Shown: piece by piece, positions 11,346 through 56,697 of the stretch
How positions within the stretch are numbered: the first letter of the stretch is position 1
How the letters are laid out: every line of letters begins with the position of its first letter
Source: Candidatus Omnitrophota bacterium
GTDB lineage: Bacteria > Omnitrophota > Gorgyraeia > Zapsychrales > Zapsychraceae
Direction: 5' to 3'
DNA length: 64,000 bases
NCBI GenBank assembly: GCA_003528115.1
Contig: DOGZ01000023.1
Coordinates: 24,231 to 88,230, forward strand
Notes under the pieces: generated by a model
Told to the model about the DNA's origin: nothing
The model's database searches: none
The model's input: only the letters and a program-made list of their open reading frames with translations
Made by a program: the position numbers and the translations under genes

Positions 11346-11409
11346 TTTAGAATTTTTGTAGTTGGTATGACAGACATCCAATGAATGGGCTTTCTTAAGG
11401 AGGCATTTA

Positions 11410-11886
11410 ATGAAAATCAGTGATTTCCTTTCTGCCAAGGCGGTTTCGGCTAACCTGATGAGCACGACCAAGGCGGACGTTATATCCGAACTGGTTGATC
11501 TGCTTGTCAACGCCGGTTCGATTGATAAAAAACACAAGAAAAAAACTTTGGAAATATTAATGGCCAGGGAAGCCTTGGGTTCAACCGCGATCGGCCAAGG
11601 GATCGCGATTCCGCATGGGAAATGCGATTGTGTTCAAAAATTAGTCGGTTGTCTGGGAATTAGTAAGAGCGGGATAAATTTCGATTCTTTAGACGGCGAG
11701 CCTGCCTATATTTTCTTCTTGCTCGTTGCCCCCATTGATTCCGCTGGGCCTCACCTCAAGGCGTTAGCCAGAATTTCTCGTCTATTAAAAGATAAATATA
11801 TCCGAGAAAGTTTCAAGGCCGTAACCGATGAAAAGGGTATCCTGAAGATTATTCAACAAGAAGATGGGCGACTATCTAAACCATAA
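11410..11886 (+). CDS. ptsN: PTS EIIA(Ntr)-type nitrogen regulatory protein
   Basis: 'MAREALGSTAIGQGIAIPHGK' active-site region with the phosphorylatable His; 158 aa. Confidence 0.75.
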   Translation: MKISDFLSAKAVSANLMSTTKADVISELVDLLVNAGSIDKKHKKKTLEILMAREALGSTAIGQGIAIPHGKCDCVQKLVGCLGISKSGINFDSLDGEPAYIFFLLVAPIDSAGPHLKALARISRLLKDKYIRESFKAVTDEKGILKIIQQEDGRLSKP

Positions 11887-11888
11887 GC

Positions 11889-13130
11889 ATGCCGAAAAAT
11901 CCTATTAAGTGGTTATACCCAGGCATGAGGGTTAAGCGGTGGCTGTTCACGTCTCTGCTGGGGGTCGTTATTGTCGGTGTCGGGGCGGTATTGACGGCGG
12001 AACCATATTCATTTGTCAGTGCCTTTGGCGTTGTGTGGATATTATGCGGTTTGATTTTGATTGTGATGGGCGTGGGGAAAATGATAGTCTCGCTGCTTAC
12101 CTTGTTTCTCCCTAAAGGCGAACGAGAATTAGTTAATATCCTCTATCAGCGTCGATATTTAGAGCGTGGCCCCAAAATTGTTGCCATCGGCGGCGGTCAC
12201 GGTCTTTCACATCTTATATTTGGATTAAAAGAATACACCTCCAATATCACGGCTATTGTGACTGTGGCCGACAGCGGTGGATCCTCTGGCCGTTTGCGGG
12301 AAGAGTTTAACATTGTCGCGCCGGGGGATATTCGCAACTGTTTGGTGGCTTTGGCGGATGCCCCGGCCTTGATGGGGGAACTTTTCCAATTCCGTTTTTC
12401 CAAGGACTCAGAATTAAAAGGGCATAATTTTGGAAATTTGTTTTTAACCGCCATGGTTCAATTGACCAACGGCGATTTTGAACGCGCAGTCAAAGAGACA
12501 AGCAAGGTCCTGGCCATACGCGGCAAAGTGGTCCCATCGACGGTGAGTAATGTTCATCTTGTGGCAGAATATTGGGATGGGACAAAAACAGAAGGGGAGG
12601 CCGCGATCCCCAATTCCAACTCAAGGATTAAACGTCTTTCGTTGACCCCTCAAGAGGTTTATCCGACGAAGGACGCCCTGGCGGCCATTGATGAGGCGGA
12701 CATTATTATTTTAGGCCCGGGAAGTTTATACACCAGTGTGATCCCGAATTTGATTATTCAGGGGATGGATGAGGCAATCGCCAGAGCCTATGCTTTTAAG
12801 ATTTATGTGTGTAATGTCATGACCCAGCATGGAGAAACGGATGGCTATTCCGCGAGTGATCATGTCAAGGCCATCATTGAACATTCTCAAGCGGGAGTCA
12901 TGGACGCGTGTTTGATTAATAACGCCGAAGCCCCAACCGATGCCCTCGGGCGGTATAAAAATGAGGCGTCTTTTCCTGTCAAGGCGGATACGGAGCGCAT
13001 TCGGGCTATGGGGTACAAAGTCGTGGCCACCGATTTGCTGGGGGTCACGGATTATGTCCGTCATGACTCTAAAAAACTCATCAATGAGCTCATTAAGTTG
13101 ATTGAAACGCATCGGGTGATTAAGAGATGA
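11889..13130 (+). CDS. YvcK/CofD-family (UPF0052, gluconeogenesis factor-like) protein with an about 95-aa N-terminal two-helix membrane anchor
   Basis: 'PKIVAIGGGHGLSHL...IVTVADSGGSSGRLREEFNIVAPGDIRNCLVALAD' is a YvcK/CofD signature. The first about 95 aa are strongly hydrophobic. Confidence 0.7.
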   Translation: MPKNPIKWLYPGMRVKRWLFTSLLGVVIVGVGAVLTAEPYSFVSAFGVVWILCGLILIVMGVGKMIVSLLTLFLPKGERELVNILYQRRYLERGPKIVAIGGGHGLSHLIFGLKEYTSNITAIVTVADSGGSSGRLREEFNIVAPGDIRNCLVALADAPALMGELFQFRFSKDSELKGHNFGNLFLTAMVQLTNGDFERAVKETSKVLAIRGKVVPSTVSNVHLVAEYWDGTKTEGEAAIPNSNSRIKRLSLTPQEVYPTKDALAAIDEADIIILGPGSLYTSVIPNLIIQGMDEAIARAYAFKIYVCNVMTQHGETDGYSASDHVKAIIEHSQAGVMDACLINNAEAPTDALGRYKNEASFPVKADTERIRAMGYKVVATDLLGVTDYVRHDSKKLINELIKLIETHRVIKR

Positions 13131-29839: not shown

Positions 29840-30928
29840 ATGAGCGTGAGGCATTTCCTGTATTTGGTGGCGACGGATCAGAAAAAGGGATGGGGAATTC
29901 AGGTCTTGAAATCCGTCTTAGGCCTGTTGTCCTGCCTTTATGGTTTCGTGGTTCTGATCATTGGGTGGGCTTACCGCGGGGGCTTGTTTAGAACCATCCG
30001 TCTGGCCAGACCAGTTGTGAGTGTCGGCAACATGACTTTGGGAGGCGTGGGCAAAACGCCCCTTGTGGAATTGATCGCCGCGGCCTTAAAAGAGAAGAAC
30101 ATCAAACCGGTTGTTCTCATCCGCGGGTATATGAGTCCAATATGTTCGCGGAAGTCAGGAGTTGGGCGCAGGTCCTTAAGCGATGAAGCCCGGATGCTGG
30201 TCGCTTCTTTGGGGGATGTGCCGGTCTTGGTCGGGGCGGACAGAGTGAAGAATGCCGTCAATTTTTTGAAAGGGCACACCGCGGATATTTTCTTGTTGGA
30301 TGACGGGTTTCAGCACCGGCGGATTTTCAGGCAGTTGGATATTGTGGCGATTGACGCGACCGATCCTTGGGGGAACGGATGTTTGATCCCTCGTGGTATT
30401 TTGAGAGAACCTTTCAGGGCCTTGCGCCGGGCGCACATGGTGGTGTTAACCAAGACGGACTTAGGCGGGTCCAACGTCCCTCAGATCAAGGCGCGGTTAC
30501 AAACGTTAGGCCTCACCCTCCCGGTCATCGAGACCATTCATCAGCCCTGCGCCCTTGTGGATGTGCGTTTGAAGACAACGACGTCGATGTCTTTCCTTAA
30601 AGGAAAAACAATTTGTTCTTTTTGCAGTATTGGACATCCCAAGACGTTTGAAATGACGCTGGTGAATTTGGGGGCGCAGTTAGCAAAAAGTTTTTCTTTT
30701 ATTGACCATCATGTGTATGAAGAAGACGATATCGCGCGGATCGCCCGGTATTGTCAGGCCGACGGGATCGATACGGTGGTGACCACACAGAAAGACGCGG
30801 TCAAACTGGAACAGTGGTTACGGTTCTTCCCGGCGTCTTTTAAAGTTTTATCCTTGCAGATCAAGATATCGATTGTCAAAGGGAAGGAAGAATTCTTTGA
30901 AAGAATTGATCATCTACTACAGCGCTAG
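29840..30928 (+). CDS. lpxK: Tetraacyldisaccharide 4'-kinase
   Basis: 'VSVGNMTLGGVGKTPLVELIA' P-loop. Start moved to the ATG at 29840; the ORF track's 29777 start overlaps waaA. Confidence 0.85.
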   Translation: MSVRHFLYLVATDQKKGWGIQVLKSVLGLLSCLYGFVVLIIGWAYRGGLFRTIRLARPVVSVGNMTLGGVGKTPLVELIAAALKEKNIKPVVLIRGYMSPICSRKSGVGRRSLSDEARMLVASLGDVPVLVGADRVKNAVNFLKGHTADIFLLDDGFQHRRIFRQLDIVAIDATDPWGNGCLIPRGILREPFRALRRAHMVVLTKTDLGGSNVPQIKARLQTLGLTLPVIETIHQPCALVDVRLKTTTSMSFLKGKTICSFCSIGHPKTFEMTLVNLGAQLAKSFSFIDHHVYEEDDIARIARYCQADGIDTVVTTQKDAVKLEQWLRFFPASFKVLSLQIKISIVKGKEEFFERIDHLLQR

Positions 30929-32861
30929 ACTTTTTGGTCTGGTCATCCAATCCTTGCCGTTGCCCGTGGCCCTCTGGACGGGAAAGTTTCTCGGCATGAT
31001 GGTCTATTACGTCGACGCGCGGCATAAGGCCTTGGCCTATGCCAATCTGAAAATGGCCTTTAGCCGTTTAAGGTCATCGGATGAGTTAAAGCGAATCACC
31101 AAGATTCTGTTTCAGAATTATGGACGGAATTTGATTGAATTGTTCCGCATGCCGCTGCTGACTCCGTCTAAGTTCGCGGAATTGGTCAAGATTGAAGGAA
31201 AGGAAAACATCTCTGAGGCGTTGAAGCAAGGCAAGGGACTGATTTTGATTGCCATGCATTTTGGAAGCTGGGAGATGGCCAGCGTTTCGTGCGGTTTACT
31301 GGATCATCCGTACAAGGTCATTGTCAAACCGCAAGTGAAATATTCTAAACTCGATGAGCTGCTCAATTCTTACCGGGCCTGCGGGGGGTCGGTCATTCTT
31401 TCCAAAGGATTGGGGACGCGGGACTTTGTGAAAAGTTTAAAGAACAATGAAGTCATCGGCATGGTGGTGGATCAAGGGGGCAAGGATGGTGTCCTGGTGC
31501 CGTTTTTCAGCCGGCAGGCATCGATGTCCTCAGGGGCCATCCGTATGGGATTGAAGTGGGGCGTGCCGTTATGCTTCTCTATTATTATCCGGGAAAACGG
31601 CGCGCACCACCGGATGATCATTAATAAACCTCTTGAGCTGGAAAATACCGGAGACATGGAAAAAGATGTTGTGACGAACTTAACAAAGATCGCCGGGATC
31701 ATGGAACGGTATATCACCGAGTATCCGTCGGAATACATGTGGTTCTATAAAATCTGGAAGTATTCGAAAGAGGCGCATATCACCCTTCTCAGTGACGGAA
31801 AGACTGGTCATCTGCGGCAATCCGAGACGGTGGCGCGGATGATGCAGAAGGCTTTGGCGGAAAGAAGGATCGCCTCAACGGTTCAAACCGTTCAGGTGAA
31901 TTTCAAGAATAAGTTTGCCGCGAGAATTTTTTCTCTCATGAGTCTTCTTTCGCGTCCTTTCTTGCATCAGGGCCGGCTGCAATGTCTGAAATGGTTTCTG
32001 ACCGAGAAGTCTTTAAAAGATGTCATGGCCGCGAAGGCGGATTTTATTGTCTCCTGCGGCTCCTCCATCGCCGGGGTGAATCATCTTTTGTCTCAGGATC
32101 ATAATGCCAAAAGCCTGGTGGTCCTTAAGCCGGGTCTCTTGGGATATGACCGGTTTGATTTGGTCCTATTGCCCCAGCATGATGTCTCGCGTCAAGACAG
32201 GAGCAGGAAACGCGTCGCTGTCACGGTCGCGGCGCCGAATTTGGTTAATGAAGAGTATCTGAAAGAACAATCCGTTTTGCTTTTGAACCGGTTTTCGCAT
32301 CTGAAGAGCCATACAAGAATGAAGATAGGCCTTTTTATCGGCGGCAATTCGAAAAACGTTTATTTGAGCGAGCCTCAGATAAGGGTATTGATTCACCAGA
32401 TCAAGCAGATCGCTCAAGAAATGAACGCGGATATCCTGGTGACGACGTCCCGCAGGACCCCGGGGCATCTTGAGCAACTGCTTCACGCGGAATTGAAGAA
32501 ATTTCCCCGATGTCCTTTGCTGATATTGGCTAACAAGGATAATATCCCGGAGGCTGTCGGCGGGATTCTGGGGTTGTCGGATATCGTCGTGGTGTCGGGG
32601 GACAGCATCTCCATGATCTCTGAGGCCGCGGCTTCAGGGAAAGACACCATTGTTTTTTCTCCGGAAAGCCGCGGAGGTTTCTGGAAAGGGACGGACAAGC
32701 ATAAAGTGTTTATTGAAAAACTTTATACCCAGGGATTTATTTTATCCGCCGAGGCGGGAAGTGTCGCGCAAACCATCAATGACGTTTTCAAGAACAAGAT
32801 CCATACAAAGAAAATCGAAGACCAGCAGATTATTCTCAACGCGGTGCGGGAAGCTATTTAA
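30873..32861 (+). CDS. Two-domain protein: N-terminal LpxL/HtrB-family lipid A late acyltransferase fused to a C-terminal ELM1/COG3660-like GT-B-fold domain
   Basis: The N-half has 'LIAMHFGSWEMA' (HX4E/D acyltransferase motif) and a LABLAT-like layout. The C-half has 'ILVTTSRRTP' and 'VVVSGDSISMISEAAASGKDTIVF', resembling the Mito_fiss_Elm1/COG3660 family. Assignment from memory. Confidence 0.55.
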   Translation: MSKGRKNSLKELIIYYSARLFGLVIQSLPLPVALWTGKFLGMMVYYVDARHKALAYANLKMAFSRLRSSDELKRITKILFQNYGRNLIELFRMPLLTPSKFAELVKIEGKENISEALKQGKGLILIAMHFGSWEMASVSCGLLDHPYKVIVKPQVKYSKLDELLNSYRACGGSVILSKGLGTRDFVKSLKNNEVIGMVVDQGGKDGVLVPFFSRQASMSSGAIRMGLKWGVPLCFSIIIRENGAHHRMIINKPLELENTGDMEKDVVTNLTKIAGIMERYITEYPSEYMWFYKIWKYSKEAHITLLSDGKTGHLRQSETVARMMQKALAERRIASTVQTVQVNFKNKFAARIFSLMSLLSRPFLHQGRLQCLKWFLTEKSLKDVMAAKADFIVSCGSSIAGVNHLLSQDHNAKSLVVLKPGLLGYDRFDLVLLPQHDVSRQDRSRKRVAVTVAAPNLVNEEYLKEQSVLLLNRFSHLKSHTRMKIGLFIGGNSKNVYLSEPQIRVLIHQIKQIAQEMNADILVTTSRRTPGHLEQLLHAELKKFPRCPLLILANKDNIPEAVGGILGLSDIVVVSGDSISMISEAAASGKDTIVFSPESRGGFWKGTDKHKVFIEKLYTQGFILSAEAGSVAQTINDVFKNKIHTKKIEDQQIILNAVREAI

Positions 32862-32999: not shown

Positions 33000-35099
33000 A
33001 TGAAAATATTACAAATACTTCCTGAATTGAACGTCGGAGGCGTGGAGACCGGGACTCTGGATTTCGCCAAGTATCTGGTCGCCCATGGGCATCAGTCTTT
33101 GGTTGTCTCTCACGGGGGCAAGTTAGTGGCCGAACTCGAGAGGGCGGGAAGCCGGCATTATGTTTTGCCGGTCCACCAAAAATCATTTTTATCCATAGTG
33201 AAGCAGATTAAACCTCTTCGAAAAATCATTCTGGAGGAAAAGGTCGATATCGTTCACGCCCGTTCCCGCGTCCCGGCCTGGATCGCTTACTTTGCCTGCC
33301 GCAAGACAGACGCCTCTTTTATCACGACCTGTCATGGTTATTATAAAAATTATTTATTCAGTCAGGTGATGGGTTGGGCCAAGTTGGTCATTGCCCCGAG
33401 CAAGGTGATCGCGCGTCACATGATGGATGATTTTCATGTCTTCCCGGAGCAAATCCGGTGCATTCCCAGGAGCGTCGATTGGGAGAAATTTTCCATTCCC
33501 AGGACGCCGAAGACGGGAGGCGAGCCGCGCATCATAACGATCGTTGGACGCGTAACGCCTCTGAAAGGCCATGTCTATTTTATCAAGGCCATGGCCAAAG
33601 TGATTCGGTCCATGCCTCATATTAAGGTGTGGATTGTCGGCGATGCCCCGGCCAAGAAGGAATTTTATAAACGGGAAGTTGAGGTGTTGATTCGCCGTCT
33701 GGGGATACAAGACTATGTGGAGTTCTTAGGTAACCGTCAGGATATTCCTCAGCTTTTGTCCAAGACCGATGTGTTGGTGTTATCGACGATCACGCAGGAA
33801 GCCTTTGGCCGCGTGATTTTGGAGGCCCAGGCCGCGGGGGTCCCGGTTGTGGCCACCAAGGTCGGCGGCGTGGTGGATATTATTGATGAAGGCAAGACAG
33901 GGCTTCTGGTCCAGCCCAAAGACACCGAGGCCATGGCCGGGGAAGTGATGCGGCTGCTCAAAGATCCATTATTGGTTCAACAGATCACCGCGCAGGCGCA
34001 GAAGAAACTTAAAGAAGAATTTACGATTGACAAAATGGCCTCCCGGACCCTCGAGGCGTATCAGGAACTTGCCACGGTGAAGAATATCTTCGTTATCAAA
34101 TTAAGCGCCCTGGGGGATGTAATTCTCATTACAGCCTCGCTAAAGGCGTTACGGCACCAATTCCCCAAGGCCAGGATCTATTGTCTAGTGGGAAAGGATG
34201 TCGTGAAGATCCTGCAGAGCTGCCCGTATCTGGACGGTCTCATCGTTTACGATCAGAAGGATAAAGGATGGTGGGACATATTTAAGTTTTCTTCCAAGGT
34301 GCGGGCGTATAAGTTTGATCAAGTGATCGATTTTCAAAACAGCCGTCGCAGCCATGTGTTAGCATTTTTGAGTTTTGCCAGAGACACGTATGGGTTTCAT
34401 AATGGGAAATGGAGTTTCTTGCTGACACGGCCTGTTTCCGGTTACCGGAATGATATCCCTCCGGTGGAGCACCAGTTCCAGATTCTGGAGAAATTGGGGA
34501 TTTCTTATAAGACCGCTCATCCATTCCTTGAGCTTTGGCCGTCGGAAAAAGACCGTCAATATGCTCAAAAATTACTGGACGCCGAGTGGCTGGGAAACAG
34601 CAAGAACATGGTGGGCATCAATATCGCCGCTTCAGCCAAATGGCAAACCAAGAATTGGCCTGTGGAACACGTCGCGAAATTGTGTGATCTTCTTTCGAGC
34701 AAGAACATCCGGGTCGTGTTAACGGGCATGGCGAAAGATAAAATCCTGGTGAAAAAGGTTTTATCCCTGACCCATGCCAAGCCGGCGGATCTGACCGGCA
34801 AGACGGATATTTTACAGCTCGCGGCGCTGATCAAAAAATGTAAAGTTTTTGTCACGCCGGATTCGGCACCGCTTCATGTGGCCGCGGCCATGAAAGTCCC
34901 TTGTATCGCTTTCTTTGGGCCGACGGATTCAAAACGCCACATCCCCCCGGCCAAGAAAATGATTGTTTTCGAGAAGAAACCCGCCTGTGCCCCTTGTTAC
35001 AGTTCGCGATGCAAGATAGGAACGCATGCCTGTCTGCAGGACATCACGCCGGAAGAAGTCGCTGAGGCCATTGAGACACTGATCGGAGAACATCCTTGA
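33000..35099 (+). CDS. Fusion of a GT4 glycosyltransferase (N-terminal) and a GT9 heptosyltransferase-family domain (C-terminal)
   Basis: GT4-like N-terminus 'KILQILPELNVGGVETGTLDFAKYL...EAFGRVILEAQAAGVPVVATKVGG'. C-half 'IFVIKLSALGDVILITASLKALRHQFPKARI' and 'DSAPLHVAAAM' are GT9 hallmarks. 699 aa. Confidence 0.7.
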   Translation: MKILQILPELNVGGVETGTLDFAKYLVAHGHQSLVVSHGGKLVAELERAGSRHYVLPVHQKSFLSIVKQIKPLRKIILEEKVDIVHARSRVPAWIAYFACRKTDASFITTCHGYYKNYLFSQVMGWAKLVIAPSKVIARHMMDDFHVFPEQIRCIPRSVDWEKFSIPRTPKTGGEPRIITIVGRVTPLKGHVYFIKAMAKVIRSMPHIKVWIVGDAPAKKEFYKREVEVLIRRLGIQDYVEFLGNRQDIPQLLSKTDVLVLSTITQEAFGRVILEAQAAGVPVVATKVGGVVDIIDEGKTGLLVQPKDTEAMAGEVMRLLKDPLLVQQITAQAQKKLKEEFTIDKMASRTLEAYQELATVKNIFVIKLSALGDVILITASLKALRHQFPKARIYCLVGKDVVKILQSCPYLDGLIVYDQKDKGWWDIFKFSSKVRAYKFDQVIDFQNSRRSHVLAFLSFARDTYGFHNGKWSFLLTRPVSGYRNDIPPVEHQFQILEKLGISYKTAHPFLELWPSEKDRQYAQKLLDAEWLGNSKNMVGINIAASAKWQTKNWPVEHVAKLCDLLSSKNIRVVLTGMAKDKILVKKVLSLTHAKPADLTGKTDILQLAALIKKCKVFVTPDSAPLHVAAAMKVPCIAFFGPTDSKRHIPPAKKMIVFEKKPACAPCYSSRCKIGTHACLQDITPEEVAEAIETLIGEHP

Positions 35100-36202
35100 A
35101 CATCCTTTTTCTAACAACGCATCTGAATACCGGCGGCATAACAACCTATCTTCTGACGTTGACGAAGGGATTGGTGCGCCGCGGATGTTCTGTGCACGTG
35201 GCCTCATGCGGCGGAAATAGGGAAGAGGCATTCATTGCAAGCGGGGTAAGACTTCTCAACATCAACATCCGCACCAAGTCGGAACTCTCCCCGCGACTAT
35301 ATCTGGCCCTGCCTCATCTCAGGCGCTACGTCAAGGAACACAATATCGAAATCATTCACGCCCATACGCGGATCACGCAGGTGATGGGGCGATTGTTAAA
35401 GACTCTGACGCGCAGGCCGTATGTGTCCACGTGTCATGGGTATTTTAAACCGCGCTTTTCCCGCAGGATTTTTCCGTGTTGGGGAGACGCGGTGATCGCG
35501 ATCAGTCAGGCTGTTTGTGATCATCTTAAAAAGGACTTTGGCGTCAAGAAGGAGAAGACGGCCTTGATCCCGAGCGGTTTGGACTTAGAGGCGTTTCCCC
35601 TCATTGATGAGGAAAAAAGGAAGAGGAACCGTCGGCGTTTGGGGTTAAGCGATGAACCCCTCATCGGCATCGTCGCGCGGCTGTCGGATGTCAAGGGACA
35701 GGATATTTTGATTAAGGCGATGAAAAAAGTCATCGAAAGAATCCCGCGGGCCAGGCTTTTGATCGCGGGGGAAGGAAAGTGGGAATCCTCCTTGAAAGAC
35801 CTCGCGCGCAGTTTAGGGTTAACAGACCATGTCCTATTTTACGCCGGCGTAAACGAGACTGTCGACAGCTTATCGATGTTGGATGTCTTTGCCATGCCGT
35901 CGCGTTCCGAAGGGCTGGGTCTGTCGGTGATGGAGGCCCAGGCCTGCGGCCTGCCGGTGGCGGCTTCGCGCGTCGGCGGGATTCCGAGTCTCATTGAAGA
36001 CGGCCAAACCGGTTTTCTAGTGGAACCTGAAAATCCGGATGCCCTTGCCGGGGCTTTAGTGAAAATTCTCGAGAATCCGGGTCTGGCCAAGCGCGTGGGA
36101 TCGGCGGCCAGAAAGTTTATTGAAGAAAATTGTTCGTCGGATAAGATGGTGGATAAGACGTTAGCCTTGTACAAAGGCGTTATAGACAAGAGACATGAAT
36201 AA
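35096..36202 (+). CDS. Glycosyltransferase family 4
   Basis: 'ILFLTTHLNTGGITTYLLTL' and 'SEGLGLSVMEAQACGLPVAASRVGGIPSLIEDGQTGFLV' (E-x7-E region). Confidence 0.75.
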   Translation: MNILFLTTHLNTGGITTYLLTLTKGLVRRGCSVHVASCGGNREEAFIASGVRLLNINIRTKSELSPRLYLALPHLRRYVKEHNIEIIHAHTRITQVMGRLLKTLTRRPYVSTCHGYFKPRFSRRIFPCWGDAVIAISQAVCDHLKKDFGVKKEKTALIPSGLDLEAFPLIDEEKRKRNRRRLGLSDEPLIGIVARLSDVKGQDILIKAMKKVIERIPRARLLIAGEGKWESSLKDLARSLGLTDHVLFYAGVNETVDSLSMLDVFAMPSRSEGLGLSVMEAQACGLPVAASRVGGIPSLIEDGQTGFLVEPENPDALAGALVKILENPGLAKRVGSAARKFIEENCSSDKMVDKTLALYKGVIDKRHE

Positions 36203-37208
36203 TATCCTGGTGGTCAATGTCAATTGGCTGGGCGATGTGATCTTTTCCTCCCCGGTTTTTAGAGCTCTGAAAGAGGCCTATCCCCAGGCGAGGATCATCT
36301 GCCTGGCGGTACCCCGGGTCAAGGAGATCCTTGAGAGTATTCCATTTATCGATGAGATTATTATCTATGATGAGAAAGGCAAACACGCCTCGCTCACGGC
36401 CAAGCTGGGGTTGATTTATTCCTTGAGGAAAAAAAAATTTGATATTGCCTTTTTATTGCATCGTTCCCTGACACGGGCATTGTTTGTTTTCCTGGCGGGG
36501 ATCCCTCGGCGGGTGGGTTACGATACCAAAGGCCGGGGCTTTTTTTTGACGCACAAGGTTAAGCCGCTGGCGGGAGAGGCGCACCGCTCCGATCATTACC
36601 TCCATGTGATCGAGTCTTACGGCATTTCCGTCCGCGACCGTCGGACACAATTAAACGTGACCTCCCAGTCCAAGGAGGAGGTCTCGGGGATGCTGACTGC
36701 CGAGAATGTCCGGCCCGAAGATGAAATAGTTGTCATTAACCCCGGCGGGAATTGGGATCTGAAACGCTGGCCCGTTGAAAACTTCGCGAAACTGGTGGAT
36801 CATTTGATGAATGAGGGGCGTTGGAAAGTTGTGATCGCCGGAGCGCCTCAAGATGTCCCTCTGTTTGAGACCATCATCTCCCATAGCAAAGACAAACCCA
36901 TCAACCTGACGGGAAAGACGACCCTCAAGCAACTCATGGCCCTCATGCAGCGGGCCAGACTGGTGATCTCAGCCGATTCCGGGCCGTTGCATCTGGCCAG
37001 CAGTGTCGGTACGGACGTGATCGGCATCTTCGGCCCCACGCGTCCGGAAATCACCGGCCCCCGCGGATCGGGCCGCGGCGCGATCCTCCAGCATGACGTC
37101 GGCTGCAACCGCAAGGCGTGTTACCATTTAAAATGTCCGGATAATATCTGTATGAAATCCATCAGTGTGGAAGATGTGCTTACCAAGTTCAATAAGATCA
37201 TAGAATAA
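36195..37208 (+). CDS. GT9 heptosyltransferase-family glycosyltransferase (WaaF/WaaC-like)
   Basis: 'ILVVNVNWLGDVIFSSPVFRALKEAYPQARI' and 'DSGPLHLASSVGTDVIGIFGPT' signatures. Confidence 0.75.
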   Translation: MNNILVVNVNWLGDVIFSSPVFRALKEAYPQARIICLAVPRVKEILESIPFIDEIIIYDEKGKHASLTAKLGLIYSLRKKKFDIAFLLHRSLTRALFVFLAGIPRRVGYDTKGRGFFLTHKVKPLAGEAHRSDHYLHVIESYGISVRDRRTQLNVTSQSKEEVSGMLTAENVRPEDEIVVINPGGNWDLKRWPVENFAKLVDHLMNEGRWKVVIAGAPQDVPLFETIISHSKDKPINLTGKTTLKQLMALMQRARLVISADSGPLHLASSVGTDVIGIFGPTRPEITGPRGSGRGAILQHDVGCNRKACYHLKCPDNICMKSISVEDVLTKFNKIIE

Positions 37209-37456
37209 CCCCTTTCACTTCCTCAGCAAAGGCCGGTAAATATTCCATTGACGATACCGTTTTACAAATGCGGCATATGACCCGGTCTCTCAGTCTAGAG
37301 AATTTTGTTTACAATGAGGACGATTGCAAGGCGATGACCGTGCTTTTGGATTGTCTGCGGCCGCAGGCGGATGCTTATTTTCTATTGACAAATGGAGACG
37401 CTGTGGTAAGTTGTGTATGTAAATAAAGTGTACTAAAGTTATTTCAAAGATAACCT

Positions 37457-38257
37457 ATGCTACAATATAATACATCAAAAACTTTTGGGCCCATTGAGAC
37501 CAATATCATCGCTCGTTTAACATACGAGAAAAAGTTGATCGTCACCATAGAGGATCTCGATCAACTATTTAAACTTGGTCCAGAGGACAGAAAGCAGATT
37601 GTTTTCAGGCTCAAAAGGAAAAAAATACTAAACCCTATAAAGCGCGGCGTCTATGCCTTTTCCCCGCTTGAAGCCGGCCCGGAAGGGACAGGGATTGATG
37701 AACTGCTTATTCCTCCGCTTTTTTTCCCTAAAAAAAATTATTATGTCGGTTATTCAACTATGTTTAATTACTACGGTTTTTCAGAGCAACTTTTTCAGAC
37801 TGTATATGTTCTTAATACGACCTTACGTATGGAAAGAATAATTTGCGGCATTTCCTATAAGTTCATAAGAATTCCGGAAAGCCGCATCTATGGGCAGGAA
37901 ATTATTAAAGTGAAAAATACGGATGTCCTCGTTAGTTCTAAAGAGAGGACGCTCATTGATCTTCTCTATTTTAACAAGCCGGTTGGCGGCATTAATAGTG
38001 CCGCCCGGATTTTCAAACAAGTTGTTGAAGAAAAAAAATGTGATATCAGGAAGCTTGTTCAAGACGCCGCGCGCTTTTCGAATATCACGACTAGAAAACG
38101 CATCGGTTTGATTCTTGATGATTTAGGCGTCGCCGATACCGCTCTTAGGCCGCTTATCAAAAGTGTAGCGAAAACCGCGCTGAGTTCGTTTAGCGGATCG
38201 CGTAAAGGAACACTCAATAAAAAATGGAGAGTCCTTGTCAATGATTCACAAAGATAA
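37457..38257 (+). CDS. abiEi: AbiEi-family antitoxin / transcriptional regulator (type IV TA, abortive infection)
   Basis: N-terminal wHTH followed by 'IKRGVYAF' (the conserved R-G-x-Y) and a C-terminal 'YYVGYSTMFNYYGFSEQ' region. AT-rich (visibly lower GC than neighbours). Overlaps the downstream toxin gene by 23 nt. Confidence 0.65.
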   Translation: MLQYNTSKTFGPIETNIIARLTYEKKLIVTIEDLDQLFKLGPEDRKQIVFRLKRKKILNPIKRGVYAFSPLEAGPEGTGIDELLIPPLFFPKKNYYVGYSTMFNYYGFSEQLFQTVYVLNTTLRMERIICGISYKFIRIPESRIYGQEIIKVKNTDVLVSSKERTLIDLLYFNKPVGGINSAARIFKQVVEEKKCDIRKLVQDAARFSNITTRKRIGLILDDLGVADTALRPLIKSVAKTALSSFSGSRKGTLNKKWRVLVNDSQR

Positions 38258-39119
38258 AGAGGAATTTATAAAAATTCTTGAGAGAGCATCCAGGAAAAAG
38301 GAATTCTTATTGCCTCAATTGGAGAAAGATTATTACTTAACATTGATTCTCTCCCGGGTCCATGAGCTTTCAGAAGACCTCATTTTTAAAGGGGGGACAT
38401 GCCTGAATAAAATTTATTACGCGTATTATCGTTTGAGCGAAGATCTTGATTTTAGTATAAAGCTCCCGCAGTACGAAGCGACGCGCGGCGAAAGACGCAA
38501 GTGTATCCAGCCGGTGAAGGATAATATAAAGAAATTTGTGGAGCCATTCGATATCAGGATTGATGATTCGGGCAATCCCGGGCGTAATGAATCCAAGCAG
38601 TATGTATATTATTTCGTTTATCAATCAGCTCTGCGCCAGGTCGAAGCAAAAATTAAATTTGAAATCAGCCTCAGGTATAATCCGATTCACGCGACAGAGA
38701 AGCGTCCAGTCCAGCATCATTTTTTGCATCCTTTTACCGGAGAGCCGTTATTTGATGGAGGCAAGGTTAATTGTTTATCCTTAAAAGAGATTGTGAGTGA
38801 AAAGCTCCGGGCCGCGGCTTTAAGGGAGACAATCGCGCCGCGCGATTTTTATGATCTTGATTTTATTTTGCGTAGTAAATTCAATCTTGCGGATCAGGAG
38901 GTTATCGATCTTTTTAAGAAAAAGATTGAGGAAGATGGCGGAGATCCGGAATTAGCAAAGTATCGCGCCAATCTCGGGCGGTCCAATGATGAAATTAAGG
39001 ATATGCGTTCACGGATTGAAAATGAATTATTTGACGCATTAACACCGGGTGAACGTGAGCATTTTGATCTCGACCAAGCGTTGGTGAGAATCAATGAGGC
39101 TTTAAAAGGGCTAAAGTAA
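38235..39119 (+). CDS. abiEii: AbiEii/AbiGii-family nucleotidyltransferase toxin (DUF1814)
   Basis: 'FKGGTCLNKIYYAYYRLSEDLDFS' matches the KGGTAL...RFSEDIDF core of AbiEii nucleotidyltransferases. 294 aa. Confidence 0.7.
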   Translation: MSMIHKDKEEFIKILERASRKKEFLLPQLEKDYYLTLILSRVHELSEDLIFKGGTCLNKIYYAYYRLSEDLDFSIKLPQYEATRGERRKCIQPVKDNIKKFVEPFDIRIDDSGNPGRNESKQYVYYFVYQSALRQVEAKIKFEISLRYNPIHATEKRPVQHHFLHPFTGEPLFDGGKVNCLSLKEIVSEKLRAAALRETIAPRDFYDLDFILRSKFNLADQEVIDLFKKKIEEDGGDPELAKYRANLGRSNDEIKDMRSRIENELFDALTPGEREHFDLDQALVRINEALKGLK

Positions 39120-39207
39120 TGACGCCGGTGGGTCGTGCGGATGAGAAATCTGATTTTGAGAGGGTTTTAGAAAGGTTTAATCAGATATTCGCGGACAAGA
39201 AATTTAA

Positions 39208-39453
39208 TTCAAACGCCCGCCGGACACTTTGAAAGGTTCGGAAAAGAGTTCGGATAAGATTTTTGCGGTAAGCAGGAAGAACGGTAGCATTAGCGCAACA
39301 CAGTTAGCGCGGATTTTAGGTGTTTCTCCAAGGGCGATAAAAAAACAGATCGCCAATTTGAGATCTTTTGGAGTTTTAAAGCACGTTGGCGGTCGTAAGA
39401 TGGGGCAATGGGAAATCATCGATAAAAATAACCTTTCCGTTCCTGGACCATAA
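39208..39453 (+). pseudogene. C-terminal wHTH fragment of a COG2865-type (AlbA_2-HATPase_c_4-wHTH) putative regulator; truncated remnant
   Basis: 'ATQLARILGVSPRAIKKQIANLRSFGVLKHVGGRKMGQWEII' matches the C-terminal wHTH of COG2865 proteins. The reading frame opens only 7 codons upstream, after a stop. Confidence 0.5.
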
Positions 39454-39736
39454 AAGTCTTGACGATATTGTTTCCGACGCGACCGACCTCACCGCCGCCG
39501 CGATCGACGCCTGCCGCGATGTCGGGAAGGGGAAGGTCAAGTGATCGCCTTGTTGAGAGGTCTATAAAAAGGATTAGTTCAAATGAACGGTCAATGGATG
39601 GGGCAATACACCGAAGGGCGAATGCGCGAATGCGGGACACAATACTTATTTCGGAAATCAACGTGCCAGGTACTTTCGCAGGGGACAGGTTGAAGGTTGA
39701 CCGAGTAGGCTCCCTTCGGCAGGAAAATCGAAGAAT

Positions 39737-39940
39737 ATGTTCAAAGAATCCGAAACAATCGAGTTCAAGAAATCCACCGCCCAGGTTAAGGCGGGGGTCC
39801 TTTCACCTGTGGCCATGCTCAACAAACATGGCCGGGGAGAGGAAATCAATCCGGGAGATTTCTTTATCGGCCATAAGAAGTCGATGAAATTGGATAGTTT
39901 CAAATATGCACGTAACGCCATCAGACAAATCACGCATTAA
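39737..39940 (+). pseudogene. N-terminal fragment of an AlbA_2 (Schlafen-like, COG2865) domain gene; disrupted after about 30 codons
   Basis: 'ESETIEFKKS' is the classic AlbA_2 N-terminal motif. The sequence diverges soon after and stops at 67 aa, overlapping the next heptosyltransferase start. Confidence 0.45.
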
Positions 39941-40937
39941 AAAAATACTCGTCATCTCATTGTCGAACATCGGGGATGTGATTTTGACGTTTCCGGTTAT
40001 TGACATCTTAAAGACCGAGCTGCCTGCCGCCGCGTTGTCCCTGGTGATTGGGCCCAAGGCCCAGTCGCTGTTTAACGGCAATCCGTATCTGGATAAGGTT
40101 TATATTTATCATAAGAAACAATCTCCATTAGACATTTTGCCATGGATTTGGAAGTTACGAAAACAACGGTTTGATTTGGTTGTAGACCTGCGCAATACGG
40201 CCATCCCTTTGATGATCGCCCCCCAATTCAGGACTCCGTTATGGACGGCAAAGTCAGAAACGCTGCATATGAAGGAAAAGCATCTCAAAAGGCTGGGAAC
40301 GGTTTTTCCCAATACGTCGAGACTGGATCGATCGTATGCCTTGTTTATCCCTCCCATCGAGGTGCAATATGTCCGACGATTGATTGGTGATGAAATGGGG
40401 CATGACCAGAAATATGTTGTGGTGGCGCCGGGGGCGGCCGATCGGGCCAAGAGATGGATCGAAGAGGGGTTTGCCGAGGTCTGTGATCAGTTGGTCGGAT
40501 CGGAACATTTGAAGGTCGTGTTTGTGGGAGACGAGCAGGACCAAAAAGTCGCGGCAAGGATCGCCGAGAAAATGAGCGAGCCCTCGGTTAATTTATGCGG
40601 CCGGGTGAGCCTTATCCAGTTGGCCGAGGTGTTGAAACATTGTCATTTGGCGATCGGTAATGACAGCGCGCCGATGCATCTGGCCAGTTATCTGGATCGT
40701 CCTGTCCTGACGATTTTTGGCCCAACGGATCCGCGGAAATACGGCCCGTGGAGTACAAAGGCCGCCTTTATTCAGGGCCGGGCGGATTGCCGGGCCTGCC
40801 GGGATCCGGATCATATCAAAGATCATGATTGTATTCGCTCGGTGACTGGCTCCGATGTCCTCAAGGCCATCAAGTTCACTCCGGATGGTGTTGAATTTGT
40901 TAGTGGTATTCGAAAGAGCAATGAAGAAGAATTTTAA
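39906..40937 (+). CDS. GT9 heptosyltransferase-family glycosyltransferase
   Basis: 'ILVISLSNIGDVILTFPVIDILKTELPAAAL' and 'DSAPMHLASYLDRPVLTIFGPTD' signatures. Confidence 0.75.
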   Translation: MHVTPSDKSRIKKILVISLSNIGDVILTFPVIDILKTELPAAALSLVIGPKAQSLFNGNPYLDKVYIYHKKQSPLDILPWIWKLRKQRFDLVVDLRNTAIPLMIAPQFRTPLWTAKSETLHMKEKHLKRLGTVFPNTSRLDRSYALFIPPIEVQYVRRLIGDEMGHDQKYVVVAPGAADRAKRWIEEGFAEVCDQLVGSEHLKVVFVGDEQDQKVAARIAEKMSEPSVNLCGRVSLIQLAEVLKHCHLAIGNDSAPMHLASYLDRPVLTIFGPTDPRKYGPWSTKAAFIQGRADCRACRDPDHIKDHDCIRSVTGSDVLKAIKFTPDGVEFVSGIRKSNEEEF

Positions 40938-42185: not shown

Positions 42186-43217
42186 ATGAATCCATATACG
42201 AAGATTATTTCCAGGTTTTGTAAGAAGAAAATTCTTGTCGTAGGGGATGTTATTTTGGATCAATATATTCAGGGAAGCGTCTCGCGCATATCTCCCGAGG
42301 CGCCGGTCCCGATTGTTTTGGAAGAAAGGTTTTTTTACACACCCGGCGGAGCCGCGAATGTGGCCGGCAATTTACATTGTTTGGGGGCCGAGGTATCTCT
42401 GGTCGGGAGGATCGGGCATGATGCGCAAGGAGAAATTTTTAAGAAAGAATTAAAAAAGAACGCGATCAGCACCAGCGGTATCTTTGTCGATAAAAAACTG
42501 CCGACTATCACCAAGACCCGGGTCATCGCCCATCATCAACAGATCGTCCGGATCGACCGGGAAAAGAGTCATCTCGATGGGGATCCGTCGGTTAGACATA
42601 AAATCTTTCATTTTATCCAAAAGCATATGGAGGCGTTTGACGCGGTGATCCTTTCCGATTACGGCAAGGGACTGATCACGGCTGACCTGGTGCGTTTCGT
42701 TGTCAACTTGGCCCTGGAACAGAAGAAGATCATCGCCGTCGATCCCAAGGTCGAACATTTTAATTACTATCAAAAAGTGACAGCCATAACCCCGAATCTT
42801 AAAGAAACAGAAAACGCTATTCGTAATATCAAGATTACTTCCCGCAGCGGGTCTAAACTGGCTATTCATAGCGATAAGCTTCAAAGCGATGAGGACATCG
42901 ATTTGGCTGGAGAGGAATTGCTGAAGTTTCTGGAGCTGGAATCCCTGTTGATAACCTTAGGGGAGCGCGGCATGCGGCTTTTTGAGAAGGGGAAAAAGAA
43001 ATCTGTTTCTATCAACACCAAGGCGCGGGAGGTTTATGATGTCTCCGGCGCCGGGGACACCGTCATCGCGGTATTTACTTTAAGCCTGGCCGCCGGCGCC
43101 ACAAAACACCAGGCGGCAGATCTAGCTAACTTCGCGGCCGGGATTGTTGTTGGGAAACTTGGCGCTGTGGCCGTGACTAAGCCGGAACTTTTGGATGCCG
43201 TGAAGGATGGCGTATGA
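42186..43217 (+). CDS. hldE: D-glycero-beta-D-manno-heptose-7-phosphate kinase (HldE domain I / RfaE1, PfkB family), stand-alone
   Basis: 'ILVVGDVILDQYIQGSVSRISPEAPVPIV' and C-terminal 'DVSGAGDTVIAVF' (PfkB motif). 343 aa, with no adenylyltransferase domain. Confidence 0.75.
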   Translation: MNPYTKIISRFCKKKILVVGDVILDQYIQGSVSRISPEAPVPIVLEERFFYTPGGAANVAGNLHCLGAEVSLVGRIGHDAQGEIFKKELKKNAISTSGIFVDKKLPTITKTRVIAHHQQIVRIDREKSHLDGDPSVRHKIFHFIQKHMEAFDAVILSDYGKGLITADLVRFVVNLALEQKKIIAVDPKVEHFNYYQKVTAITPNLKETENAIRNIKITSRSGSKLAIHSDKLQSDEDIDLAGEELLKFLELESLLITLGERGMRLFEKGKKKSVSINTKAREVYDVSGAGDTVIAVFTLSLAAGATKHQAADLANFAAGIVVGKLGAVAVTKPELLDAVKDGV

Positions 43218-54651: not shown

Positions 54652-54813
54652 ACACGCTGGATTTTTTCTGGGGGGTTGTAGGGCGCAATATTTTATTCGT
54701 GGAAAATAATATTTTTTGTGTTGTATCTTGTGGCGCGGCTATGGTTTGTTAGTAAAATTCTTGACTTTAAAATTTTCGTATGTTACGGTGTACCATCAGA
54801 AAAGGAGGAAGGG

Positions 54814-55425
54814 ATGCGTAAAGAATTGCCGTTACATTTTTTATGGGTATTGGTTTTAATTATAGGTTTTTCGAGCAGTGGGTGCACGGTTATTTTCCAG
54901 AAAGGGAGACGGGCTGACCTCGATAAAATTTCCAAATTAAAGAATCAGTTGACTGATTTAGAAAGAGCCAAGTTAGAGCTGGAGGATCGTCTTAAGAATG
55001 AAATAGATGATAAAGAAGTTAAAGTCGATATGATGGATAAAGGCCTGGTGATCACCTTTGTCGCCGAGGTTCTTTTTGATTCCGGCAAGGATGAATTAAA
55101 GCCGGAATCTTTAGCGAAATTAGAAAAAGTTTCTGATGTCCTGAATACAACCGTCCGGGATTTTCTGGTTGGGGTTGAAGGGCACACGGATAATGTCCCT
55201 ATTAAATATTCCGGATGGAAATCGAATTGGGAATTGTCTACGGCCCGCGCCTTAAGCGTCCTTCATTTTCTCGTTGATACACAGGGACTCGAAGCTCAGC
55301 GTCTTTCGGCGACAGGGTACGGGGAGTATCATCCTGTGGCTTCTAATGAAGCAAAAGAAGACAGACAAAAGAATAGAAGAGTAGAAATCGTCATCCTTCC
55401 CAAGGCCACGAAGAAAGGGCGTTAA
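54814..55425 (+). CDS. OmpA/MotB-family peptidoglycan-binding lipoprotein (Pal-like)
   Basis: Lipobox 'FSSSGC'; C-terminal 'GHTDNVPI...NWELSTARALSV...NRRVEIVI' OmpA_C motif. Start at MRKEL, preceded by AGGAGG. Confidence 0.75.
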   Translation: MRKELPLHFLWVLVLIIGFSSSGCTVIFQKGRRADLDKISKLKNQLTDLERAKLELEDRLKNEIDDKEVKVDMMDKGLVITFVAEVLFDSGKDELKPESLAKLEKVSDVLNTTVRDFLVGVEGHTDNVPIKYSGWKSNWELSTARALSVLHFLVDTQGLEAQRLSATGYGEYHPVASNEAKEDRQKNRRVEIVILPKATKKGR

Positions 55426-55448
55426 TTTCGGGAATTGTTTCGTTAAAG

Positions 55449-55832
55449 TTGGAGTTGGCCGTGAGAGTTATTATGATTATAGTCGGGCTCTTGGTCATAG
55501 CGATTAGCTGCGGGTTGGCTTTCCGATATGGCCGGTATGCAACCAATGCCAGGGCAGATTTGGAGCAAGAACGATATCTTCGCATGGTCGCGGAAGAGAA
55601 TGTTCAGGCATTTCATGCTAAATTGGAAACTTTAGAGGCAGAATTAAAGCGCAGTCAAAACAAAATAAAGGCGGTTGAGAAAGTTGCTGAGCAGAACCAA
55701 GCGATCAACGTTGATCTTAAATCCCGATTGGATAAAATTTTAGAAATAAAAGACAGGTTAGAGGCCAAAATCAAAGAGTTGGAACATCTGTCTTCAACGA
55801 AGGATTTTTGCGCGATTTCCGGGGCGGCATAA
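55449..55832 (+). CDS. Small membrane-anchored coiled-coil protein (FtsB/LapA-like)
   Basis: One N-terminal TM helix, then about 90 aa of heptad-rich K/E sequence. Confidence 0.35.
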   Translation: MELAVRVIMIIVGLLVIAISCGLAFRYGRYATNARADLEQERYLRMVAEENVQAFHAKLETLEAELKRSQNKIKAVEKVAEQNQAINVDLKSRLDKILEIKDRLEAKIKELEHLSSTKDFCAISGAA

Positions 55833-55930
55833 ATTATTCCCTTTGAGTAATTATTGCCCTGCGCGGAATTAATGGACTCTTTCCTTACTTTTGCAGTCAT
55901 AGCATTCATGAATAAGGTTTATTTTGACAT

Positions 55931-55959
55931 GGGGGATAATGATCCCCCATTTTATTTCC
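55931..55959 (+). terminator. Rho-independent terminator: GGGGGAT-aatg-ATCCCCC followed by ATTTTATTTCC
   Basis: A 7-bp GC-rich stem plus a T-rich tract. It lies inside the ORF-track extension of uppS, which supports the later uppS start at 55969. Confidence 0.6.
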
Positions 55960-55968
55960 CCTTTTAAT

Positions 55969-56697
55969 ATGCCTGAGTTAATCAACAAAAATATTCCTCG
56001 TCATATTGCGATCATTATGGACGGGAACGGGCGTTGGGCCAAAAACCGGAAACTAACTCGTACTCAAGGGCATTGGGAAGGGGCCAAGCGTGTGGAGGAG
56101 CTTGTGGCCGTAGCGCAGGCTATGGACATTAAAGTTTTGACATTATATACGTTCTCAACAGAAAACTGGAGGAGGCCCAAGGCGGAAGTTTCGGTTTTAA
56201 TGAAAATGTTTGCCAATGTGCTTGATAAAAAAATTAAGAAATTGAAAGCGAATAATGTGAGGTTTCGAATGATCGGGAGAAAGGAAAGCATTCCCGATTT
56301 TGTTTTCCGCCGTCTTAAAGCGGTTATGGATGAAACAAAAGATAACACCGGATTGATTATGAATTTGGCTTTTAATTATGGTTCTCGTCAGGAAATAGTG
56401 GATGCCGTTCAAAGTATTGCCCGGGCTGTCCGGGATGGACAAATCGGTCTTGATGCGATAACGGAAGCGACCGTTAGTCAGGCCTTATATACCCGGGATC
56501 TCCCCGATCCGGATTTGCTCATTAGGACATCAGGGGAAAAAAGGATCAGCAATTTTCTTTTGTGGCAATTATCGTATGCCGAGTTGTATTTTACAGAAGT
56601 TTTATGGCCCGATTTTGGTGAAGATGAATTTAGAAAAGCGGTTGCCGATTACCAGCAGAGAGATCGCCGTTTTGGAAAAGTGGGAAATGCCCGTTAA
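55969..56697 (+). CDS. uppS: Undecaprenyl diphosphate synthase
   Basis: 'HIAIIMDGNGRWA' and 'TLYTFSTENWRRP' signatures. Confidence 0.9.
   Translation: MPELINKNIPRHIAIIMDGNGRWAKNRKLTRTQGHWEGAKRVEELVAVAQAMDIKVLTLYTFSTENWRRPKAEVSVLMKMFANVLDKKIKKLKANNVRFRMIGRKESIPDFVFRRLKAVMDETKDNTGLIMNLAFNYGSRQEIVDAVQSIARAVRDGQIGLDAITEATVSQALYTRDLPDPDLLIRTSGEKRISNFLLWQLSYAELYFTEVLWPDFGEDEFRKAVADYQQRDRRFGKVGNAR

Follow-up and report, generated by a model that had tools for sequence, protein, structure and literature searches.

We analysed a 64,000-nt stretch of contig DOGZ01000023.1 from the Candidatus Omnitrophota assembly GCA_003528115.1, a metagenome-assembled genome; this whole stretch is called the window, and coordinates are window positions unless a locus (L number) is named with them. 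Within the window, two GT9-family glycosyltransferase genes of a lipopolysaccharide (LPS) core operon, GT9a and GT9b, are separated by a 2.7-kb islet that carries an AbiE toxin–antitoxin (TA) pair. Our best explanation, which we hold with a probability of roughly 85%, takes the islet for a mosaic of DNA that was acquired by horizontal transfer and now sits in the GT9a–GT9b junction, with the AbiE module as its only intact cargo and scraps of COG2865 genes around it. The islet and its two flanking genes are laid out as follows:

36195–37208, + strand: GT9a, upstream flank, heptosyltransferase II (WaaF)-like, intact (Pfam Glyco_transf_9, 1.2e-41)
37209–37371, no strand: block A, filler preceding the AbiE cassette; contains a weak hairpin (37352–37369)
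37372–37456, + strand: predicted abiE promoter and leader, conserved among independent AbiE loci
37457–38257, + strand: abiEi, putative antitoxin/autorepressor, 266 aa, intact (Pfam AbiEi_1, PF09407; PADLOC AbiEi)
38241–39119, + strand: abiEii, putative DUF1814 nucleotidyltransferase toxin, 292 aa, intact (Pfam AbiEii; PADLOC)
39120–39208, + strand: non-coding 3' tail of the AbiE cassette, where 86% homology with L028/L029 continues to 39209
39209–39500, + strand: block C, 3' end of a COG2865 gene (last 81 codons and 47 nt past the stop)
39501–39677, no strand: block D, a non-coding stretch
39678–39841, + strand: block E, upstream region and first 35 codons of a COG2865 gene (AlbA_2 N-terminus, MFKESETIEFKKSTAQVKAGVLSPVAMLNKHGRGE)
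39845–39886, + strand: block F, in-frame fusion to block E of 14 HATPase_c_4 codons from a COG2865 gene
39887–39935, no strand: block G, right islet junction, including the GT9b start codon (39906)
39906–40937, + strand: GT9b, downstream flank, GT9 glycosyltransferase, intact (Pfam Glyco_transf_9, 2.9e-36)

The insertion was evident from the gene order of related operons. We collected 27 loci with relatives of GT9a from species-representative genomes, 26 of them Omnitrophota-type operons with 42–69% identity, and mapped all proteins of the window onto them; 23 loci extended past GT9a and were informative. The order GT4–GT9 fusion, GT4, GT9a, GT9b, GT9c was conserved in these relatives. The original prediction had proposed to look for contiguous GT9 genes elsewhere, and they were adjacent or overlapping in 20 of the 23 informative loci, where the distance from the GT9a end to the GT9b start ranged from −31 to +77 nt. 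Nor was the content of the islet conserved at this position: AbiE was absent from the GT9a–GT9b junction in all 23 relatives, as predicted for an insertion. Because 20 of the 23 relatives have adjacent or overlapping genes and none has AbiE, the adjacent arrangement is ancestral and the 2.7 kb is lineage-specific. The islet was thus inserted in one Omnitrophota lineage, into a short junction, where it broke the tight GT9a–GT9b coupling found in the relatives.

Other sequences have entered the same operon. The closest relative, L001, carries a HigB/HigA pair at GT9a–GT9b (11045–11652; Pfam HigB-like_toxin, 2.7e-20, and HTH_3). Like the islet, this pair occupies the GT9a–GT9b junction in the same orientation, tight against the GT9b start; unlike the islet, it belongs to another gene family and is free of debris. 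L022 has a GIY-YIG nuclease gene at the junction (8216–8497), and L002 has a 153-bp GT9a–GT9b gap without an ORF of at least 45 aa. In L017, a pair encoding a DUF5678 protein (79 aa) and a retropepsin-like aspartyl protease (133 aa) lies between GT9b and GT9c (12026–12666). The GT9a–GT9b junction therefore seems to be a hot spot that tolerates small selfish modules in general and is not specific for AbiE.

The foreign origin of the AbiE cassette was evident from its copies on other elements. AbiEii has thousands of homologues, hundreds of them at 73–93% identity. By blastn, positions 37372–39130 are 91% identical in nucleotide sequence to the copies in L030–33 and L037 (92% at the amino acid level), where the pair sits beside TrbI, TraV, a TraG-type coupling protein and a tyrosine integrase, with HTH_17 genes after it, in a setting resembling an integrative and conjugative element (ICE). 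Positions 37378–39209 are 86% identical to the copies in L028/29 (93% aa), which have a serine recombinase with DUF2924 as a neighbour and are followed directly by a type I restriction–modification (RM) system (hsdM, hsdS). The housekeeping genes flanking the islet, for comparison, have at most 69% amino acid identity to any relative found. That copies with 86–91% identity occur both on an ICE-like contig and in an RM island shows directly that the cassette is of horizontal origin, and upholds the earlier claim that the cargo was acquired in this way.

A comparison of the window with 80 further metagenomic loci, found through AbiEii, defined the ends of this cassette. Homology started at 37371–37383 in 11 independent contexts and usually ended a few bases from the abiEii stop, and the 42 loci with at least 800 bp on each side had 28 mutually unrelated flanks on the left and as many on the right. 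Since the homology spans the promoter to the abiEii stop across unrelated flanks, the travelling unit is the minimal operon, with its left edge at the position of the promoter. In 27 contexts, the neighbours included HsdM (4), Eco57I-type methylases (3), DUF1016 (3) and Fic (2), plus housekeeping genes; the commonest specific neighbours were RM genes and DUF1016. IMG/VR contained no AbiEii relative and no match to the motif of the 5' (AlbA_2) fragment, and a viral or prophage origin of the module was rejected, as no close copies were found on those viral contigs. Two of the other AbiE loci had further peculiarities. In L030 (6879–7337), a 43-aa ORF after the cassette resembles the C-terminal part of an HTH_17 (excisionase-type) protein and is followed by an intact HTH_17 gene, so the cassette may have inserted into one member of a tandem pair. 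L100 (90–3933) holds a second AbiE pair of the subfamily (64% aa), lodged tightly between two GT4 genes on a 4.3-kb contig.

Both genes of the islet pair are intact. The original prediction had called an apparently intact AbiEi/AbiEii pair with a short overlap, and profile searches with the translations gave strong support on every count. AbiEi matched Pfam AbiEi_1 (PF09407) at 7.8e-9 over residues 90–221, above the cut-off, and PADLOC AbiEi at 7.4e-44 over residues 14–263, nearly its full length; AbiEii matched Pfam AbiEii (PF08843) at 3.2e-32 and the PADLOC model at 4.3e-38. The genes lie on the same strand, antitoxin first, and overlap by 17 nt when abiEii is started at the ATG at 38241. 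The ORF list had placed this start at a TTG at 38235. We prefer the ATG because the homologues, as judged from 120 listed of 2,598 matches, are nearly all 291–292 aa long and begin with MIHKDK. A GGAGAG sequence lies 8 nt upstream of the ATG.

All four catalytic motifs, as defined in PMC3985639, are present in AbiEii. Motif I (G51-G52) is followed, exactly 15 residues on, by motif II (R64, D68 and D70); motif III is KLRAAALR (188–195; K188–R195) and motif IV is R201-D202-F-Y-D205. The serine in R64-L-S66-E-D68-L-D70 was invariant across 26 homologues and occupies the position of the phospho-acceptor T65 of Streptococcus agalactiae AbiEii (10.64898/2026.01.19.700257). The ratio of non-synonymous to synonymous substitution rates (dN/dS) was 0.14–0.15 for abiEi (against L030 and L028) and 0.06–0.09 for abiEii (against the mobile-element copies); the pair is under purifying selection. 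An AlphaFold2 (AF2) model of AbiEii had a predicted local distance difference test score (pLDDT) of 76 and a predicted template modelling score (pTM) of 0.69. Its best matches in the PDB were MenT3/TglT, JHP933 and MenT4, with E values of 2e-6 to 8e-5 and template modelling (TM) scores of up to 0.61, and the fold is accordingly predicted to be MenT-like. A sequence search of the PDB with AbiEi returned a single, spurious match, and the AbiEi homologue of L028 (87% aa identity) had only a weak match to AbiEi_4 (8.4e-4).

Judging from its sequence, the AbiE module also brings its own conserved sigma-70-type promoter. The predicted elements are a −35 TTGACA (37385–37390), a 16-nt spacer ending in TGn, and a −10 TAAGTT (37407–37412), and the conserved leader includes GTTAT-N7-ATAAC. 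In an alignment of 16 sequences, reaching down to about 65% gene identity, TTGAC, TGnTAA and blocks of the leader were invariant. Only a short, imperfect palindrome of 5–7 bp without compensatory change was seen as a candidate AbiEi operator, and it was rejected. Inspection of the sequence upstream of abiEi showed no Shine–Dalgarno motif. To the left of the cassette, block A was homologous to nothing in the relatives, in AbiE-bearing loci or elsewhere in the window. A 52-aa ORF running from block A into the leader (37268–37426) had no Pfam or PADLOC match, and the hairpin was discarded as an intrinsic terminator, being no more stable than shuffled sequence.

Downstream of abiEii, the islet is a mosaic of debris. 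Homology to the L030 and L039 type of locus stops at about 39130. A 37-aa ORF at 39119–39232 was not accepted as a gene, since its nucleotides are kept in L028 and the ORF is not; we treat this part as the non-coding tail. The tail and block C share AATT at their junction, a 4-nt microhomology that fits illegitimate recombination. Block C reads from FKRPPDTLKG... through the winged helix-turn-helix (wHTH) to a stop at 39451–39453 and had been called as a 74-aa ORF (39229–39453). It is 84% nucleotide-identical to L132 969–1261, where a 258-aa HATPase_c_4 ORF lies directly upstream. Its protein matched residues 385–447 of a 447-aa AlbA_2–HATPase_c_4–HTH protein (E = 1e-10), the HATPase_c_4–wHTH ORF of L034 (E = 5e-9) and Pfam HTH_11 (1.1e-7). 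Block D had no Pfam match in any frame tried and no nucleotide homology; a second, degenerate wHTH copy in 39454–39736 was considered and dropped as insignificant at both the nucleotide and the protein level.

Blocks E and F form a composite ORF (39737–39940). Block E has 76–95% nucleotide identity to copies in L034, L036 and L122, and its protein relatives carry PF04326 (SLFN_AlbA_2 in P0141, 4.8e-19). Block F, INPGDFFIGHKKSM, aligned to VNPEDFFTGHEKSI of L034 with a score of 56, compared with 23.7 ± 4.1 for shuffled sequences (0 of 500 reached 56), and with 82% nucleotide identity over 38 nt; the fusion is like that in P0213. Because HATPase_c_4 rather than AlbA_2 sequence follows codon 35, the composite ORF is an internally deleted gene that was later cut off. 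For the same reason, and because block G has no assigned source, we abandoned the idea that AlbA_2 homology extends to 39937 and that the GT9b start was captured from the remnant. Homology to the GT9b orthologues of L001 and L003 restarts at 39936 (ATTAAAAAAAT, encoding IKKIL). The original prediction had named two COG2865 fragments amid non-coding debris; the COG2865 pieces are real, but there are three (39209–39453, 39737–39841 and 39845–39886), and none makes up a complete three-domain ORF. Full COG2865 genes, annotated as "ATP-binding protein" or "RNA-binding domain-containing protein" by the prokaryotic genome annotation pipeline PGAP, have about 450 codons, and the remnants, which align to the N-terminus, HATPase_c_4 and C-terminal wHTH, are non-functional pieces of 35, 14 and 81 codons. 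The debris is probably derived from two such AlbA_2–HATPase_c_4–wHTH genes, and from at least one.

Scans of ORFs and Pfam domains revealed no recombinase gene in 33–44 kb. Direct repeats had been suggested as marks of the insertion ends at about 37.21 and 39.90 kb; none above chance was found at either end. The best candidate for an insertion-site duplication, a 13/15-nt match between 37248 and 39459, lies off the boundaries, and by our estimate chance alone would produce about five pairs of this kind in 3.4 kb.

The base composition across the region is uneven, as first described, with a contrast that is real yet moderate and not unique in the window. In 200-bp windows, GC content fell to 0.35–0.45 over 37.3–38.4 kb, compared with about 0.5 on either side. 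The AbiE pair has a GC content of 0.41, and only 0.6% of 1.66-kb windows were equally low or lower (mean 0.48, standard deviation 0.025), the lowest of all beginning at 37401 and overlapping the pair. At third codon positions (GC3), abiEi (0.41, z = −2.8) and abiEii (0.43, z = −2.4) ranked lowest and third lowest among 53 genes (0.553 ± 0.051). An OmpA-family gene and uppS at 54718–56697, both housekeeping genes, have a GC3 of 0.42–0.44, on a par with the AbiE genes. Since these are just as low, composition alone is no proof of foreign origin, and we dropped the idea that low GC proves it.

AbiE was classified as a type IV TA system by Dy et al. in 2014 (PMC3985639), and a 2026 preprint (10.64898/2026.01.19.700257) moves it to type VII, so the "type IV" of the original prediction holds under the older scheme and is superseded in the newer one. 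In this family, the toxin blocks translation by nucleotidylation of tRNA 3' ends, and the antitoxin represses the promoter and neutralizes the toxin (PMC3985639; 10.64898/2026.01.19.700257). Neutralization is now thought to be antitoxin-induced autophosphorylation of the toxin, with T65 as the acceptor in S. agalactiae AbiEii (10.64898/2026.01.19.700257). By homology, the islet AbiEii would arrest growth, and the likeliest means is nucleotide addition to tRNA 3' ends; an N-terminal DNA-binding domain of AbiEi would repress the operon, and its C-terminal domain would neutralize the toxin, probably through induced autophosphorylation at Ser66. A module of this kind could work in abortive-infection defence, in addiction, or in both. 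"Defence" is a label that we infer, since published phage protection by AbiE is mixed (documented for lactococcal AbiE, not seen for S. agalactiae), and a role in addiction or stabilization is an equally good reading. The COG2865 pieces are probably the decayed remains of a larger defence-island fragment that arrived with or alongside the pair. Illegitimate recombination of the microhomology type presumably joined the pieces of the islet; how the DNA entered and in which order the deletions took place are likewise inferred. We propose that the TA pair survived while its neighbours decayed because its loss is costly.

The islet pair resembles the AbiE systems of Lactococcus lactis pNP40 and S. 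agalactiae in being an overlapping bicistronic antitoxin–toxin operon with an AbiEi_1 C-terminal domain, in having DUF1814 motifs I–IV in the same register (hGG-x15-DxD, R-x-[ST]-x-D-x-D, KLxAxxxR and RDxxD) and, compared with the S. agalactiae toxin, in having a serine at the position of T65. It differs from them in its 17-nt overlap (4 nt in theirs), in an antitoxin of 266 aa in which Pfam detects no N-terminal wHTH, in a promoter without long inverted repeats, and in its host, an uncultured member of the Omnitrophota; the similarity is at the level of hidden Markov models only. The predicted AbiEii fold also resembles Mycobacterium tuberculosis MenT3/TglT (Rv1045; TM 0.56–0.61, E = 2e-6) and MenT4 (Rv2826c), of the MenAT family, which acts by phosphorylation-controlled nucleotidylation of tRNA 3' ends. 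Sequence identity to MenT3 and MenT4 is 12–18%, and the islet antitoxin is of the two-domain COG5340/AbiEi type, as is MenA4, and not of the MenA3 type.

Several points weigh against our interpretation. About 390 bp (blocks A, D and G) have no assigned source. No empty-site allele from the same species was found, so relatives at no more than 69% identity are our guide to when the insertion took place and exactly where it ends. The 16-sequence alignment showed no clear operator inverted repeat in the promoter or leader, and the N-terminal wHTH expected of AbiEi was not seen by Pfam; a single-sequence AF2 model of AbiEi was unusable (pLDDT 41.7). The AbiE system of S. agalactiae did not protect against 32 coliphages, and toxicity, antitoxin mechanism and phage defence are ascribed to the islet subfamily through its family membership.

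The search with the AlbA_2 fragment produced a set of observations on COG2865 genes in general. The matches were mostly short ORFs, many on long contigs. The first ~105 nt of a COG2865 gene recur as a short leader ORF directly before varied cargo, including DUF1016 nucleases, a DUF6577 + AbiEii-like pair and an uncharacterized 253-aa gene, and are sometimes duplicated around it. In L034 (6001–10223), two copies of the 105-nt 5' segment, 85% identical and in direct orientation, lie on either side of a DUF1016/YhcG nuclease gene; after the second come a DUF6577 + AbiEii-like pair and, beyond it, the remainder of the COG2865 gene. As the differences between the two segments are mainly synonymous, they derive from different functional genes. 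L036 (4668–7028) has two 5' segments, each with a DUF1016 gene after it, and in L127 (3475–4881) a 5' segment is followed by DUF1016 and a wHTH remnant. In L122–126 (L122 515–2616), an AbiE pair of the window's subfamily (69% aa) precedes a 5' segment, in an integrase-bearing element beside smpB. The junctions fall within ~20 nt past the ...LNKHGRGE codons. Many internally deleted "mini" COG2865 proteins also occur (such as P0213, P0184, P0167, P0208, P0206 and P0215), in one example with the N-terminal 35 aa joined in frame to the second half of HATPase_c_4 and the wHTH; P0213, P0184 and P0167 are in-frame deletion variants anchored at the LNKHGRGE position, and P0213 lies directly after hsdM (L134). 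In L036, a 50-nt direct repeat (3400–3449 and 4595–4644, 96% identity) flanks an MNT–HEPN nucleotidyltransferase TA pair in a cassette-like layout, immediately upstream of the COG2865 5' fragments. GC-rich palindromic mini-insertions (e.g. CCTGCCTGCC...GGCAGGCAGG) break the AlbA_2 5' fragments at two recurrent positions (L034 about 7340–7380; L036 about 4735–4760 and about 6080–6130), and may be a small element like a miniature inverted-repeat transposable element (MITE) or a repetitive extragenic palindrome (REP). We found nothing useful in the literature on COG2865/HATPase_c_4 in defence.

From these layouts, the COG2865 5' end looks like a recombination hot spot or cassette-insertion site, and we asked how far this could account for the islet. 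One tentative possibility, which would refine our best explanation without conflicting with it and which we rate at clearly less than even odds, is that repeated insertion of cargo just after codon 35 turned a COG2865 "landing pad" into a cassette array, of which the islet is a decayed and transferred remnant. The arrangement of 5' fragments beside DUF1016, AbiEii-like or AbiE cargo in L034, L036, L127 and L122–126 argues for it, as does the overlap of the cargo start codon with the leader stop in three of four junction types. Homology to the full AlbA_2 domain ended at reference residues 35–44 in 40 of 94 family matches, a count of early breakpoints that is inflated by the clustering of the protein libraries. 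On the other hand, the breakpoints are scattered over ~20 nt rather than falling at one nucleotide, no recombinase was consistently found with these loci, and the 80 AbiE loci retrieved by way of AbiEii all lacked an AlbA_2 motif nearby, which shows that AbiE and COG2865 are not generally linked. Less likely still is a stronger version, in which the first ~35 codons in a subfamily of COG2865 (AlbA_2) genes both attract recombination as a hot spot and act as a portable "head" for expression, the islet is a decayed, transferred fragment of an array, and the head may help express GT9b. If true, cargo would have been inserted after codon ~35, with the head sometimes duplicated, giving rise to cassette arrays and to in- and out-of-frame deletion variants; this would be an undescribed way to assemble defence-gene arrays.

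The remaining alternatives to a mosaic of acquired DNA with one intact module are all improbable, to increasing degrees. The AbiE pair might be an inert relic that no longer works in TA or defence, in keeping with the pseudogene debris around it, the lack of a Shine–Dalgarno motif before abiEi and the absence of defence in one well-studied AbiE system. Yet both ORFs are full length and of the same size as their homologues, the catalytic and regulatory residues are all intact, dN/dS is 0.06–0.15, the promoter is conserved and the sequence is identical in six assemblies, and we consider a relic improbable. The original prediction had found the placement notable, since the LPS core is a phage receptor, and the position could be adaptive if it coupled a defence module to LPS-core synthesis. 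The islet is indeed co-oriented with the operon and has no convincing terminator after abiEii, and AbiE pairs lie between two GT4 genes in L100 and downstream of one in L075. However, the same junction holds HigBA in L001 and GIY-YIG in L022, GT9b–GT9c holds the DUF5678 and protease pair in L017, and the specific company that AbiE most often keeps is RM genes and DUF1016. No enrichment of AbiE beside glycosyltransferases was seen (GT4 made up only 3 of 96 neighbouring ORFs in the 27 contexts, in L100 and L075), which leaves the notion unsupported, and we regard such coupling as highly improbable. That the gene content was ancestral and lost in the relatives, an idea left some room by the missing same-species empty-site allele, is hardly tenable given the 20 of 23 loci with adjacent or overlapping genes, three exceptions without AbiE (the 153-bp gap and two unrelated inserts), the atypical GC3, and a cassette 86–91% nucleotide-identical to unrelated contexts between flanks at no more than 69% amino acid identity to relatives. 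Least credible of all is an assembly or binning artefact, even though the source is metagenome-assembled. The 11 kb around the islet is identical in six assemblies from four sources (ENA, NCBI, JGI and Logan), one copy being contig MHFX01000002.1 of GCA_001804395.1, and both islet junctions are internal to contigs of 51–192 kb. From this identity across six assemblies, the locus is fixed in the population.

AbiE modules are well known as horizontally acquired cargo of chromosomal operons, and this one reveals no new mechanism. The islet is a clean example of how a minimal TA/defence operon (promoter, antitoxin and toxin) passes between mobile elements and chromosomes of a groundwater community, and of its persistence within an essential cell-envelope operon while the accompanying DNA decayed. 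It extends AbiE to the phylum Omnitrophota and shows one operon junction struck repeatedly by different selfish modules.

The surroundings of the islet are an LPS inner-core and 3-deoxy-D-manno-octulosonic acid (Kdo) operon with every gene on the + strand. GT9a scored 186 bits against NCBIfam TIGR02195 (heptosyltransferase II), above the cut-off of 134.6. Besides GT9a and GT9b, the neighbouring genes are:

30873–32861, + strand: lipid A acyltransferase–ELM1 fusion, 662 aa, with an ELM1-like domain
33000–35099, + strand: GT4–GT9 fusion, 699 aa, carrying a GT9 domain
35096–36202, + strand: GT4 gene, sitting among the GT9-domain genes
about 40921 (or 40855)–41985, + strand: GT9c, with a GT9 domain
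42186–43217, + strand: RfaE heptose-7-phosphate kinase domain, followed by KdsB and KdsA

The four GT9-domain genes said to flank the insert are thus all there, one of them (33000–35099) as part of a fusion, the others being 36195–37208, 39906–40937 and 40855/40921–41985. Both fusions, that of lipid A acyltransferase with the ELM1-like domain and that of GT4 with GT9, are kept across the Omnitrophota relatives. Elsewhere in the window, three tRNA genes (Lys-TTT, Leu-TAG and Gly-GCC) are clustered at 10936–11345.

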